Virus record (IMG/VR): IMGVR_UViG_3300040786_000016
From: a virus
DNA: 64,000 nt
Strand: one strand, 5' to 3'
Below the pieces are notes generated by a model that was given only the letters and a program-made list of their open reading frames with translations, made no database searches and was not told the origin of the DNA. Of the stretch, positions 5,742 to 27,942 are shown piece by piece. A program made the translations under genes and the position numbers. Position 1 is the first letter of the stretch; each line of letters opens with the position of its first letter.

Positions 5742-5877
5742 AAATTAAAAATAATTACAAAAGACTTGCTTTATCTAAATAAGTGTAGTATATTTGCATA
5801 AGAATTAAAACAAAGAAAAATAGTCTTTTATAAAAAAAGCGTATATTTATTAAACAACGTGGTAAAACACATAAAAT
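5742..5877 (+). promoter_or_regulatory. Promoter cassette for tRNA operon 2
   Basis: TATATTTG at 5789-5796 and ATATTTAT at 5843-5850; 5742-5835 is nearly identical to 19579-19673. Confidence 0.8.
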
Positions 5878-6048: not shown

Positions 6049-6120
6049 GGGACTGTAGCTCAGTTGGTAGAGCGAGGGACATGAAGTCCTGCGTCACAGA
6101 TTCGATTTCTGTTGGTCCCA
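6049..6120 (+). tRNA. trnF: tRNA, probably Phe(GAA); anticodon loop garbled
   Basis: Clear D and T arms; loop reads CATGAAG inside an AGGGA/TCCT stem. Confidence 0.65.
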
Positions 6121-6236
6121 CAAATTAAATTAAAATATGGAAAATTATTTAGAAGAAATAGAATTGACTGAAAAAAATTGTTAGTGTTAAAAAATAAACA
6201 AAAGAATTAGTTAGGGTTATTAAAAATACGAATAAA

Positions 6237-19520: not shown

Positions 19521-19578
19521 ATCATTATTAGTAACCAATATAAAAGTCTAAGGACTAGTAACCAACTAGTTATAAAAT

Positions 19579-19690
19579 AAATTAAAAATAATTATAAAAA
19601 GACTTGTTTTATCTAAATAAGTGTAGTATATTTGCATAAGAATTAAAACAAACAAAAATAGTCTTTTATAAAAGACATATATTTATAACA
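19579..19690 (+). promoter_or_regulatory. Promoter cassette for tRNA operon 3 (copy of 5742-5835)
   Basis: TATATTTG at 19627-19634, ATATTTAT at 19679-19686. Confidence 0.8.
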
Positions 19691-19718
19691 AATAGAGAAA
19701 TCTAAAATAAAAGAAATT

Positions 19719-19793
19719 ATGAAAACAATGACCACATATCAACCAAAACAGTATACGCAAGGCGGACTCCGCAGTGCAAACTGGGTATGTTAA
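19719..19793 (+). CDS. Leader peptide 3 (MKTMTTYQPKQYTQGGLRSANWVC), putative attenuator for the Tyr/Pro/Thr/Lys/Gly/Gln tRNA operon
   Basis: Residues 2-16 use only K,T,M,Y,Q,P,G; AACTGGGT (19779-19786) is identical to the terminator 3' arm. Confidence 0.85.
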   Translation: MKTMTTYQPKQYTQGGLRSANWVC

Positions 19794-19847
19794 GTTGTCA
19801 AGATTTAACCACGATATAAATGTAGAGTAAAACCTATATAAAATCAG

Positions 19848-19882
19848 ACCCAGTTCAGAGTAAAATCTAAACTGGGTTTTTT
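19848..19882 (+). terminator. Intrinsic terminator (attenuator) before tRNA-Tyr
   Basis: ACCCAGTT...AACTGGGT stem plus TTTTT. Confidence 0.85.
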
Positions 19883-19900
19883 ATGTTAAAAAATTAAATT

Positions 19901-19981
19901 GGGGTCCGCTAGAGTCGGAGAGCTAGGGCGGTCTGTAACACCGTTGCGAAAGCTGAATAGGTTCGAATCCTATGGTCCCCA
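19901..19981 (+). tRNA. trnY: tRNA-Tyr(GTA)
   Basis: GCGGT-CTGTAAC-ACCGT arm; long variable arm GCGAAAGC. Confidence 0.9.
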
Positions 19982-20050
19982 CAGAGAAGAGACTGTTACT
20001 AATTCATAGGACACCAAGGTAAAGTACTGGAAGCGTAGAATTAGAAATCA

Positions 20051-20141
20051 CTAGATGTGAAGGCAATTGGAAGCCGACTCCACTTGGAATGGAGAAGTAG
20101 TGTTAAAACGCTCAATGCGAGTTCGAGTCTCGTCTTCTAGA
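20051..20141 (+). tRNA. trnP: tRNA-Pro(TGG) with an unusually long variable arm
   Basis: CTCCA-CTTGGAA-TGGAG arm; C1-G72 and A73; 22 nt variable region. Confidence 0.8.
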
Positions 20142-20148
20142 CAAAATG

Positions 20149-20224
20149 CGTCCCATAGCTTAAATGGTAAAGCGGCATCCATGAGGGGTGTATGGATTGG
20201 AGGTTCGAGCACTCTGGGAGGCCA
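20149..20224 (+). tRNA. tRNA, anticodon unresolved (CAT present in the loop region; Met possible)
   Basis: TAGCTTAAATGGTAAAGC D arm and GGTTCGAG T loop; anticodon arm garbled. Confidence 0.6.
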
Positions 20225-20228
20225 AATT

Positions 20229-20301
20229 CGGGGTATAGCTTATATGGTAAAGCACTGGCTCGCTGTCAGTTTAATGGTAGGTTCGAACACTCCTACCCCG
20301 A
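20229..20301 (+). tRNA. tRNA with a Pro-like body; anticodon garbled
   Basis: CGGGGTATAGC start, TACCCCG-A end (C1-G72, A73). Confidence 0.65.
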
Positions 20302-20315
20302 CAAAAAATTAAAAT

Positions 20316-20389
20316 GCTATATACGCATAAACGGTGGTGCACAACATTTGTAACGTTGAATAGACTCGGTTCGATTCCGAGATATAGCT
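20316..20389 (+). tRNA. trnT: tRNA-Thr(TGT)
   Basis: TTTGTAA loop; GCTATAT/ATATAGC acceptor. Confidence 0.85.
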
Positions 20390-20482
20390 CTAAAATTAAA
20401 TAATATAGATTATGAAAAATATAAAGAACATAAAGAATAAACAGTAACTACCTTCAATGCGTTGAGGGATAGTAATAACTAT

Positions 20483-20554
20483 GGCTTCAAAACATTGCTG
20501 GCGATGTACTCGGCTTTTAACCGAGGAAAATGAGTTCGATTCTCATTGGGGCTA
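20483..20554 (+). tRNA. trnK: tRNA-Lys(TTT)
   Basis: CTCGG-CTTTTAA-CCGAG arm. Confidence 0.88.
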
Positions 20555-20571
20555 CTAGATTATATTAAATT

Positions 20572-20646
20572 GCATCTATAGCCAAAATGGAATAAGGCAC
20601 CTAACTTTTAATTAGGGCTGTCTGGGTTCGAGCCCCAGTGGATGCA
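20572..20646 (+). tRNA. trnK: tRNA-Lys(TTT)
   Basis: CCTAA-CTTTTAA-TTAGG arm. Confidence 0.9.
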
Positions 20647-20665
20647 CAAAATATAATATATAAAA

Positions 20666-20741
20666 CTGGGTGTAGACTAATTGGTAAGTCGCCTACCTTG
20701 GACGTAGGACATTATTGCAGGTTCGAAGCCTGTCACCCAGA
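20666..20741 (+). tRNA. trnP: tRNA-Pro(TGG)
   Basis: CCTAC-CTTGGAC-GTAGG arm; C1-G72, A73. Confidence 0.9.
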
Positions 20742-20874
20742 CGAAATTAGTAACAATACAATGTGTCGAAAGCATTGGTTACATTGCGATTAGAGCCACA
20801 ATGGGAAGTACGAAAGGAGTAATTAACCAGACGTAAGGGTTCGGTATAGTGATTAACCTTCCTTAATTTTATTT

Positions 20875-20946
20875 GCAGAAGTAGCTCAATGGTAGAGCAC
20901 TAGATTTCCAATCTGGGGGTTGCGAGTTCGAGCCTCGTCTTCTGCT
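20875..20946 (+). tRNA. trnG: tRNA-Gly(TCC)
   Basis: CTAGA-TTTCCAA-TCTGG arm; T discriminator. Confidence 0.92.
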
Positions 20947-21020
20947 CTGTGTTCAGTTTAGTCGAATGTTCATGATAATGAACAACCGAATATAATGAAC
21001 AACATACTGGAATAATATAA

Positions 21021-21089
21021 TGGGGTAGGATGTGATGGTTGCATACAACTCTTTGACAGTTGCTGATAAAGTTCAATTCTTTACCCCAA
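21021..21089 (+). tRNA. trnQ: tRNA-Gln(TTG)
   Basis: CAACT-CTTTGAC-AGTTG arm; T1-A72. Confidence 0.8.
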
Positions 21090-21146
21090 CAATAATATAT
21101 TCGAATAGCATTGACTAATTGAATTACTTTAAGTATCTTTGTTTAT

Positions 21147-21953
21147 ATGAAAAATAAATGGAGTAACGAAGAAGAAAAATTTTAATTGAACATTATGTTG
21201 ATTATGGTGCTAAATGGGTATCAGATAAATTATCTAGGAGTATTAATACTGTAAGAATTAAAGCTAGTTATAATGGTTTAAGTTTTAATAATATTGATGG
21301 AAAATATAAAGAGATATTTTAGTAATATTATCATTACATCCAATAATTATAAAGAATGTGTTAAGAAATTAGGATTAACCAGTACTGGTAATAATAATGA
21401 TACAGTTAAAAAATATATTAAATTGTATAATATTGATGTTTCACATTTTATACATGAAAATAATTCAACGACTAAAATTAATTTATGTGATATTTTAATT
21501 GAAAACTCATCTTATTCTAGGGCCTCTTTAAAAGACAGGTTATATAAGGAAGGTTTAAAAAACGTGAATGTGAATTATGTGGTCAAGGTGAAGAATGGGT
21601 GGGTAAAAAAATGTCGTTGATATTGGACCATATAAATGGTGTTAATAATGATAATAGAATAGAAAACATAAGGATAGTTTGTCCAAATTGTAATGCGACA
21701 TTAGACACACATTGTGGTAAAATAAGAGTAAAAAAATATTAAAAAAAGTAGATTTAGGTTTTAATATTAGTGATGATGTGAATTTTAGATTTATACAAAC
21801 TAAAGAAAAATAAACGCTCAATTTAATAATCGTAAAGTTAAAGATAGACCATCAATTGATATATTATTAATTGACATAAAAGAGTTAGGTTATTCTGGAA
21901 CAGGTAGAAAATATGGTGTTAGCGATAATGCGATTAGAAAATGGGTTAAATAA
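21147..21953 (+). CDS. HNH homing endonuclease-like protein with a C-terminal HTH, embedded in the tRNA region
   Basis: CELCG...LILDHINGVNNDNRIENIRIVCPNCNA...YGVSDNAIRKWVK across indels. Confidence 0.8.
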
Positions 21954-22940: not shown

Positions 22941-23016
22941 CAAGATAAAGAATGATTTCAGCAATTAACAAAAACAAACTTTTAATTTGAAACAAACATA
23001 TCATTCTGTTCTTAAT

Positions 23017-24500: not shown

Positions 24501-25673
24501 GTAAAAAAATCGTGACATGTAGTAAAGGTAATCAAGCTAATTACCCCTAGTTAAACGATGACTAGGAACCAAAATTAAAATAACTTACTTTTATTTGGTA
24601 AGTTATTTTTTTTTTTATATTTGTACCATAATAATTAAAATAAATAATTATGGGTGTAGAAATCAAAAGAAATGAAAAGGTTTATACCAATTAAAAGCGG
24701 TATTAGTGATGAGTCATATCATCCAGAAAAAAAATGGATTAGTGAAGAAGAAAGTAAAAAATTCTTATTACTAATGAAATTTGGTCTTTATTGAAAAAGT
24801 TATTGAAATTGATAATTGTTTTCCTAGTAATTATAGGGTTAATGATATACATGATTATAAAAAATAATACAAAAGAGAACACTTACAATGGCTTAATGAT
24901 AATGCCTATGATGATGAAGGTAGTAAAATATTAGGTGATAGATTTGAAGGTATAATAAAAGACTAGGTATTGATTTAAAATTTTAAGATATGATAGGATA
25001 TATAGGTGTTACTATATTATTATGTTGTTTTGGGTATATATTTTATATCTTTAAAAACCTTATAGTAAAATTAAACAAAACGTTACCTTGATGTTTATAA
25101 ATCTGGTGATTCTGCAAAAATACCTGGTATGAGCACTTCAAGAAGCAAAAAAAAGAAAAGATAATGGCTAGAAAAGATATTAACTTAAGTATTTACATAA
25201 TTGTAAAATTAGGTATGATTTATTGTATTTATTACCTTAATTGGGTTGGACTATTAGGTTATACAATAGCTACTATATTTGCATATATTAATATGATGAA
25301 AGAAGATTAACAAATTTAATAAATAAATAAAATGAAAAACACACTAAAGGTTAAGCTAATACTAGTAATGGTTATTTTATGCTAGTATCTTGTACTAGTA
25401 ATAATGATTTTGAAAATGGAAAACAACAGTTAGATTCTCAGGGTTATACTGAAATCGTGAATACTGGTCATAGTTATTTTTGTTGTGATGATAAAGACAC
25501 ATACTCAACGGGTTTTAAAGCCAAAGATAGGCGTGGTAATATTGTAAAGGGTTGTTTTGTTCTTCAATATTAAAAGGGTTGACTATTCGCTTTGAATAAA
25601 ATATTAATAAAAAAATAAAATTACCATTTATTTATATTGTTTATTTATATATATTTATATATAAATAAACAAT

Positions 25674-26264: not shown

Positions 26265-27096
26265 ATGAAAGATTTAATTAAAATTTATTACGGGAAAACT
26301 TACTTGATGAGGATTATAATGTTCATACTGAAATGCAAGACTTATCAAACGATTTATTTAAAAAAATTGTAAGTTCACTTGTTGAAAGATGTGTAAAAAC
26401 TAAGTATGAATATTTTAAAATGCCAACAATACATAATTCATTCAATGGTTTAGTTTCAAAATATTCAAAGCTTAATGAATTTATGAATAGTTTTAGTTTA
26501 AGTTTAGCGATTAAAGATACTGATTATCGTGTTAAGGGTGATTTTAGGATGATGGCTAAAAATACTGGTGCTATTACTTTAAGAATTAGTTATGATGATA
26601 TTAGAAATTCGTTAGTAAAATACGTTAAACCATCATTAGGGAAGATTTAACTCAAGAAATGGTAAACGAAATGGTTAGTAATGTATATTTTAATCTTTTG
26701 ATAATCAAATTCTTTCAACGCTATTACATGAATTACAACATGCATATGATTCTTGGAGAAGTAATACTAAATTTACAAACTCTCGTAGGTCTAATGATTT
26801 TTTATAGTAAATATGGTAATGACAACACCTTTAATAAAATAAGTATGATGAGTACATTAAGATGCAACACGAAATAAATGCTAGATTTTCACAAGCAATT
26901 AGTGATATTAAGTTTTAAATTAAATTTTAGTGATGATGAAACTAAACCACTTAGATATAGAGTATTATTTCCGATAGATACTGTAATTGCTGATTTTAAA
27001 AGCACATTTATGGGTTATCAAGCAATGGCACCATCAGTACAAGAAAGGCTCTTAAATCGCTTAATAAAGATTTATTCACAAGCAGAAGAAAGGTAA
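26265..27096 (+). CDS. Hypothetical protein (split), after an ATATTTAT motif
   Basis: Collinear ORFs 26333-26650, 26659-26877, 26878-27096. Confidence 0.5.
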
Positions 27097-27120
27097 AAGA
27101 ATATAATGATAAATTATAAA

Positions 27121-27142
27121 AAAAGAGGCAATTGCCTCTTTT
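27121..27142. terminator. Bidirectional terminator
   Basis: AAAAGAGGCAATTGCCTCTTTT between convergent genes. Confidence 0.85.
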
Positions 27143-27148
27143 ATTTTT

Positions 27149-27290
27149 TTAACCTTGACCTCTAGTCTTTTTTTTTCAAATAATTCTTAGATTGTTTAAG
27201 TTTAGAAGATTTAGATTTAGAATGAACGCCTGGTCTTTTCTTTTTAGTTCTTTCTAATTTAGAAGACGATGTTGCTGCTTGTTTTGCCAT
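27149..27290 (-). CDS. Very basic ~46 aa peptide (…RPGVHSKSKSSKLKQSKNYLKKKTRGQG)
   Basis: Own ATATTTAT motif upstream; one indel in a poly-A run. Confidence 0.65.
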
Positions 27291-27942
27291 AGTGTGAAAA
27301 TTTATTAATAAATATTAGATTATAATTAAAAAATTAGTATATTTGTAAAAAAATTAAAATATGGAACAATTAATTATAATAAACATTGACCAAATAGGGA
27401 ACAAATGATTAAAATTGGTAAAGAACCATTGCCAGAGATAAAAACACCTGAAGAAGCTAAAGAAATGGTCCTTACAGATATTGACTGGATATCTAAGTCA
27501 TTAATTAAATTAATTAGAGTTGCTGATGAAAGTGGATACGCCAATAAAAAATTTTAATTGATAAATATACTAATTCATTATCTGAATTATTATTAGAGGA
27601 AATTTCTGATGAAAAAAAGCGATTCAGAAAGCTGAATTAATAATTGAATCATGTATTACTAATGAGCAATTTGATAGTGCTAGTGATTTTTTAGGGTTAT
27701 ATATGAAGAAATATGAAAACCAAAAGATATATGATATTTTAATGTTTTCATTAACTAATAAACGAAAACAAATAAATGGGTAATTTTAAAAAAATAATTC
27801 GTGGTGATGAATTATATCTTTACAATGGTAAGGGTGAATTAATCTATAAAAGATGGCTTAAAGAAATACATCAGTAGTGTTTGATGTCATGCCATATGGA
27901 AAGATACACTAATATCAATCACTGATAATAATACGATAAAAA

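Follow-up and report, generated by a model that had tools for sequence, protein, structure and literature searches.

A probable leader-peptide transcription attenuator ahead of a phage tRNA operon

In the IMG/VR virus record IMGVR_UViG_3300040786_000016, we analyzed a stretch of 64,000 nucleotides (nt) (here called the window), which carries a short leader open reading frame (ORF), three pairing strands, an intrinsic terminator and an operon of tRNA genes. This arrangement is referred to as module 3 (M3), and all of its features lie on the plus strand. The window has a G+C content of 28% and a strong plus-strand bias, and 26 tRNA genes were detected in it by ARAGORN. Its DNA relatives among deposited phages were solely weak matches, to uncultured huge phages of 595-636 kb, and megablast of phage records returned no match. 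Among public sequencing runs, an ice metagenome (run X1) contained 81% of the sampled words of positions 19560-21100 and is the probable source sample. A short-read contig from X1 differed from window positions 19670-20975 (~1.3 kb) by 0 substitutions and 8 single-base insertions or deletions (indels). The window is an indel-noisy assembly, and its reading frames are therefore broken, leaving almost no long ORF in the 64 kb. An alternative genetic code was rejected as the cause: ORFs were short under all codes tried, reading TGA as W or TAG as Q left the frames closed, and the short frames are due to the assembly indels.

The leader ORF is itself affected, since the X1 contig adds one G within it, after position 19763. 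With this base restored (hereafter, the polished sequence), the ORF spans 19719-19819 and comprises 33 codons, with the stop codon at 19817-19819. The 24-codon ORF described in a first-pass annotation of this DNA (19719-19793, stop at 19791-19793) is correct for the window text as printed, but not for the polished one. The polished leader peptide reads MKTMTTYQPKQYTQGGTPQ-CKLGM-LSCQDLTTI. Its frame is supported independently, because relatives of the module share a G-G-(T/K)-P-Q motif that, within the window, is given by the polished frame only. Codons 2-19 (19722-19775) form the putative sensor run. Here, the six amino acids K, T, Y, Q, P and G account for 17 of 18 residues, and the sole exception is M4; in the polished frame this in-set run reaches residue 19. 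The earlier observation that residues 2-16 consist solely of K, T, M, Y, Q, P and G is true of the ORF as printed. Counting Met among the sensed amino acids could not be upheld: residue 4 is M in the window only and T, Y, V or N in relatives.

Such a composition is singular in this DNA. When all six frames of the 64 kb were searched, the leader alone contained a stop-free 15-mer in which 14 or more residues belonged to the set {K,T,Y,Q,P,G} (one among 44,608 15-residue windows), and the polished 18-residue run had no competitor anywhere. The leaders of two further modules in the 64 kb, modules 1 and 2 (M1 and M2), were equally unique for their own sets, {C,V,L} and {S,F,E,D,A}. Scoring each of the three leaders against each of the three tRNA sets gave a diagonal matrix, with 10-11 of 11 residues matching on the diagonal and no more than 5 elsewhere.

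Region 2 (AACTGGGT, 19779-19786), the putative antiterminator strand, lies inside the leader ORF, where it encodes K-L-G in the polished frame, and is an exact copy of region 4 (19870-19877). Between them, region 3 (ACCCAGTT, 19848-19855) is complementary to AACTGGGT and can be the partner of either region 2 or region 4. We thus confirmed the identity of the 8-mer at 19779-19786 with the terminator 3' arm, and its potential for either/or pairing with ACCCAGTT, as already proposed from the first reading of the sequence. The gap of 12 nt then measured from the last sensing codon to the 8-mer holds as printed, but is partly an artefact of the 1-nt deletion. Regions 3 and 4 form an intrinsic terminator (19848-19882), in which the 8-bp stem is extended by 3 further pairs (hairpin ΔG, ~-15 kcal/mol). 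Region 4 together with its T-run occupies 19870-19882, with 6 T in the window and 7 in the X1 contig. The run ends 18 nt before the tRNA-Tyr gene; this places the terminator directly 5' of the putatively regulated genes, as is expected of an attenuator, and leaves no space for a second promoter before tRNA-Tyr. Predicted folds contained a small G+C-rich hairpin within the ORF (GCA..GCGG/CCGC..UGC, 19757-19777). Relatives have a hairpin at the same site built from other stems (AGGCG/CGCCU, AGGC/GCCU and AAGGU/ACCUU), and this element may be an RNA polymerase pause hairpin. The variable spacer between regions 2 and 3 (19787-19847), with local hairpins, holds the nonconserved leader tail and the stop codon.

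Upstream of the leader, a Bacteroidota-type promoter was predicted at 19604-19634, with TTG at 19604-19606, a 20-nt spacer and the -7 box TATATTTG at 19627-19634. Its motif TAnnTTTG, the established -7 box of Bacteroidota sigma-A, was present 49-119 nt 5' of the ATG in 11/11 relatives. A short ORF with its own start and stop is situated between predicted promoter and first structural gene, the placement typical of an attenuator leader. The promoter is part of a ~94-nt cassette also found in module 2, and a 30-mer of it is identical at 5785 and 19623; a 27-mer from the cassette had no exact copy in IMG/VR. The cassette (19579-19673 and 5742-5835) is a multicopy repeat, with a contig depth in run X1 ~4-fold that of its flanks and variant contigs mapping there. 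Scanning with the sigma-70 consensus gave a site count not above that of shuffles; owing to a loop limit, the terminator was detected on the minus strand only in that scan.

The operon behind the terminator (19901-21090) comprises genes for tRNA-Tyr(GUA), a long-arm tRNA(UGG), two aberrant tRNA-like species, tRNA-Thr(UGU) (20316-20389, detected by Infernal only), two tRNA-Lys(UUU), tRNA-Pro(UGG), tRNA-Gly(UCC) and tRNA-Gln(UUG). Further Lys, Tyr and Thr tRNAs lie downstream of this main operon. According to ARAGORN and Infernal, the canonical tRNAs past the terminator are those for K, T, Y, Q, P and G only, in agreement with the earlier statement that the assigned tRNAs all fall within the leader's set. 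The codon run is in this way tied to the genes that would be regulated, which is a further property of attenuators.

Relatives of module 3 were collected by two exact-pattern scans of IMG/VR, one with the three pairing strands and one with the leader codons only. The latter pattern gave 25 matches, 11 of which were discarded as chance matches within unrelated coding regions. The yield was 11 distinct homologous modules from viral contigs, and the 636-kb phage LR756504.1 has two diverged ones; the phages that carry the modules range in size from 93 kb to over 600 kb. Terminator and tRNAs came next in every leader-like match with downstream sequence, the terminator hairpin had -13 to -16 kcal/mol in all 11 modules, and 75 of the 81 downstream tRNAs (93%) were in-set, in varying order. 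Our alignment (A2) showed conservation of the ATG, of the front codons and of regions 2, 3 and 4, and the 60 to 70 nt between regions 2 and 3 could not be aligned. The ATG was invariant in the 11 relatives, and gaps in the leader front were whole codons (multiples of 3). A 1-nt difference just 5' of region 2 puts this strand in two reading frames (T-T-G-Y versus K/Q-L-G-M); its conservation in both argues for selection on the RNA, not the peptide. Composition changed at the same point: in-set residues made up 197/214 of the leader front and 20/87 of the tail, a drop from 92% to 23% at region 2. Where relatives had minority residues, these stayed in-set in 14 of 29 cases, compared with 18% expected (p=2e-4).

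The pairing strands also changed in concert. The relative L012 has one triple change, G/C/G, at matching positions of regions 2, 3 and 4, and module A of LR756504 has the arms ACCCGAAG/CTTCGGGG with CTTCGGGT in the place of region 2. Five relatives were also scanned over their entire contigs for M1-like and M2-like modules, whose terminator arms proved wholly different between phages, with a matching copy at leader codons 19-27 in each. Across modules 1 and 2 and their relatives, arms and leader copy thus changed together: mean duplex energy was -11.6 kcal/mol with a leader's own arm versus -6.4 kcal/mol with other arms, and 0/20,000 permutations reached the observed sum. A run-length test allowing G-U pairs was uninformative in A+T-rich DNA, and duplex energies were used instead.

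These data bear on another explanation, according to which the locus holds an ordinary small conserved peptide gene and an ordinary terminator, the second 8-mer is a relic of a duplication, and the tRNAs are expressed by leaky read-through or from other promoters. A peptide gene of this kind would not account for a nonconserved tail and a region 2 kept in two frames, nor a duplication relic for compensatory arm and region 2 changes in L012, LR756504 and the M1/M2 relatives, although covariation in the arms of the M3 family itself is little. As to other promoters, one could hide in L005-type relatives, where terminator and first tRNA are ~60 nt apart and the interval includes a conserved A/T-rich block, but hardly in the 18 nt of the window. 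The composition match would moreover have to arise by chance, at ~1 in 4x10^4 windows, three times over. We consider this explanation quite unlikely.

The spelling of the leaders appeared to track their tRNA cargo in part. The phage G001 is without tRNA-Val, and its M1 leader core is without Val codons. In module A of LR756504, Asp codons were added and a tRNA-Asp lies downstream; module B is K/Q/Y-rich and has neither Gly codons nor Gly cargo, and is followed by Tyr, Tyr, Gln and then Lys genes. On the minus strand of L002 (LR756504.1, the 636-kb phage), positions 27007-27460 hold a tandem pair of diverged modules that share the core K-Q-Y-Q-P. The first of them precedes a single tRNA-Asp and the second precedes Tyr, Tyr and Gln, with Lys genes farther on. 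Cargo-matched triplets and alternative helices would also be explained without any translation if the codon run bound tRNA anticodons in the manner of a T-box, or a protein, and thereby chose the helix. Such a ribosome-independent RNA switch is very improbable in our view: an ATG that does not vary, a stop in frame and front indels of whole codons favor translation, and no specifier-loop architecture is present. Nor was there any Rfam cis-regulator in the window, where cmscan against Rfam gave tRNA matches only and no His, Trp, Thr, Leu or Phe leader or T-box (RF00230) at gathering score; a relaxed scan of 19880-21120 yielded nothing relevant.

RNA folding was used to assess which helices could form. 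In the full RNA, the 3:4 terminator dominated; with region 4 removed, regions 2 and 3 paired. When a ribosome was modeled as a mask, placing its A-site on codons 1-17 left region 2 free, and the 2:3 helix formed (P 0.74-0.96), whereas an A-site on codons 18-28 abolished 2:3. Folding and compensatory changes thus point to a mutually exclusive antiterminator that depends on ribosome position, as in classic attenuators.

Judged from its sequence, module 3 has the architecture of a leader-peptide attenuator, and it is probably a ribosome-mediated transcription attenuator, of the trp/his type, ahead of a phage tRNA operon. The first-pass annotation had already read it as an attenuator. Comparative data support the two pillars of that reading, the codons mirroring the cargo and the either/or pairing, but not the Met sensor, the tRNA-Met gene predicted with it or the original ORF length and spacing. 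The anatomy of the module, its conservation and the associated statistics are direct observations, from which we infer leader translation, a kinetic choice of helix and the direction of the response as follows. Transcription would start from the host-type promoter, and the 33-codon leader would be translated while being made. Were Lys, Thr, Tyr, Gln, Pro or Gly codons decoded slowly, the ribosome would be held on codons 2-17, leaving region 2 free to pair with region 3 once the latter emerges; the terminator would be blocked, and polymerase would enter the tRNA genes from tRNA-Tyr onward. With fast decoding, the ribosome would be on region 2 or in the 2-3 loop as regions 3 and 4 emerge, and the 3:4 hairpin with its U-run would terminate transcription. 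The net effect would be negative feedback by each tRNA set on its own synthesis.

Several observations weigh against the attenuator model or constrain it. Among the sequencing runs found to contain the window sequence, none is recorded as RNA. Formal covariation of the 8-bp helices in the M3 family was not significant, with shuffles reaching the observed value in 134/500 and 151/500 cases, because the arms are almost invariant. In L011 and L017, region 2 has a G-to-A mismatch, and 2:3 was predicted poorly (P 0.03-0.07). Region 1 is weak: of a 1:2 (pause or anti-antiterminator) helix, which in attenuators brings about termination when translation is absent, we saw only a CAGU:ACUG core and a local hairpin. 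Since the terminator is always favored at equilibrium, the switch would have to be kinetic; and since a ribosome terminating at the stop codon, ~30 nt past region 2, leaves that region uncovered, the model requires steric exclusion inside the loop. The match between codons and anticodons is loose, e.g., GGC versus a tRNA-Gly with UCC, and 6 of 81 cargo tRNAs in relatives were out of set, the strays being Glu, His, Ser and a CUA suppressor. Finally, the M3 leader of G001 retains K, Q, T and G codons though its operon consists of Tyr and Pro only, and the ribosome-free model still favors 2:3, i.e., read-through.

The last two points would fit a switch that is real but responds to translation capacity in general, for instance to how many ribosomes are available after host shut-off, with leader composition as a by-product. 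If the ribosome-free state is read-through, as predicted, the gate would open whenever translation was lost, and some leaders could keep codons without matching cargo, as in G001. General capacity would leave unexplained why one genome has three non-overlapping, cargo-matched codon sets, why the in-set fraction falls so sharply at region 2 and why replacements stay in-set, and we judge it unlikely. The codon-specific attenuator remains our preferred interpretation.

The three leaders of the window could have a further role as on-demand counter-defence sensors, in which depletion of tRNAs stalls ribosomes and induces only the matching replacement set; we offer this as a speculative and rather doubtful extension. 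Host anticodon nucleases, or phage-induced host shut-off, might conceivably deplete Lys, Tyr, Thr, Gln and other tRNAs in such a scenario. A second tier may be formed by a Lys-rich mini-ORF before the tRNA-Lys pair and by odd tRNA-like genes with shortened or A33 loops.

The two tRNA-like genes at 20148-20223 and 20229-20302 were noncanonical even after polishing. At 20149 a tRNA-Met had been predicted from the internal Met codon of the leader. It was not found: the polished loop still reads CAUGAGG (nominally UGA with A33, or a 5-nt loop), a stem could not be formed with CAU as positions 34-36, and polishing adds one T in the T-arm only. Abnormal anticodon arms were shared by these two genes, by a third at 6049-6121 and by one in L006 (oriented 1040-1112). 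Their loops read as CAUGAGG or CAUGAAG with A33 or, equally, as a 5-bp stem with a 5-nt loop (AUGAG, UCGCU, AUGAA or AUGCG), and those at 20148 and 20229 have an A61 mismatch in the T-arm as well. They may be non-decoding tRNA mimics. The long-arm tRNA at 20051-20142 is 92 nt long, with a 3-bp D-stem, a variable arm of ~21 nt and a clean CUUGGAA loop (anticodon UGG, Pro), and is identical over ~85 nt in L004. Such class II bodies with a long variable arm are typical of Leu, Ser or Tyr tRNAs.

Other elements of the operon also recurred. The mini-ORF at 20412-20482, which adjoins the tRNA-Lys(UUU) pair, has 11 codons, 4 of them for Lys. Two small hairpins come after it, but no T-run. The mini-ORF is kept with conservative changes in L004, L006 and L028 and may act as a nested sensor for Lys or as a signal for processing. 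In L007 (oriented 835-960, from the complete 339-kb phage G001), a Lys-rich mini-ORF is accompanied by a strong hairpin and by an isolated stem-loop bearing CTTTTAA, the anticodon loop of tRNA-Lys, while a tRNA-Lys gene is missing; this echoes what the first-pass annotation had noted at window positions 22945-23013. A conserved inter-tRNA spacer of ~65 nt (19983-20049) with a CTAATTC...GAATTAG hairpin recurs between tRNAs of L004 and L006, and a second conserved spacer (20948-21019) is rich in TGTTCA/TGAACA repeats; these spacers could be processing signals or small RNAs. In L017, a 110-kb IMG/VR contig, the M3-type operon includes a tRNA with a CUA anticodon (amber suppressor) ~2.7 kb past the M3 leader, which suggests stop-codon recoding in this relative. 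Downstream in the window, a coding stretch that separates tRNA blocks (21150-21950) matches stretches of other phages that carry an HNH endonuclease annotation and is likely a homing-type insertion splitting the tRNA array. In a lipoprotein-like gene beginning at 25334 (25334-25570), the signal peptide needs a frameshift.

To our knowledge, the regulation by phages of their own tRNA genes is essentially unexplored, and we know of no leader-peptide attenuation of tRNA genes in general. Full-text literature searches likewise found no description of leader-peptide control for tRNA genes. If the attenuator model is correct, phages have turned a classic device for sensing amino acids into a monitor of decoding capacity, with its own feedback loop for each tRNA subset. 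This would account for the division of phage tRNA arrays into blocks whose amino-acid composition is fixed, and would give a direct handle on when a phage needs its tRNAs, be it through codon-usage mismatch, host shut-off or tRNA-cleaving defences. Simple reporters suffice to test the idea, because the modules are small, modular and present in phages from 93 kb to >600 kb.

Among known systems, the enterobacterial attenuators (ilvGMEDA, with Ile/Val/Leu codons; thr, with Thr/Ile; trpL, hisL, leuL and pheL) resemble module 3: a short ORF lies close to the promoter and contains a run of regulatory codons, which in the multivalent cases stand for several amino acids, the antiterminator and terminator helices exclude each other, and the first structural gene is immediately preceded by an intrinsic terminator. 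Their cargo is biosynthetic enzymes, whereas that of module 3 is tRNA genes and its leader spells six amino acids. Their stop codon is at the edge of region 2; that of module 3 lies ~30 nt past it, and region 1 is weak. In contrast to them, module 3 has a Bacteroidota-type promoter and no Shine-Dalgarno sequence, and there is no sequence or Rfam relationship. The pheST attenuator of Escherichia coli, with its leader peptide pheM, controls a component of the translation apparatus by the supply of cognate charged tRNA, as is proposed for module 3, but it concerns an aminoacyl-tRNA synthetase and a single amino acid, and is bacterial rather than viral. T-box riboswitches follow the same logic, with tRNA status selecting terminator or antiterminator before translation-related genes. 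Unlike module 3, they bind uncharged tRNA directly, by a specifier codon and the T-box sequence, and have no ORF. Drug-sensing leaders (ermCL and similar) would share with module 3 a ribosome that stalls on a short leader and remodels the downstream RNA. There, drug and nascent peptide cause the stall and translation is usually what is controlled, whereas module 3 matches codon identity to tRNA cargo.
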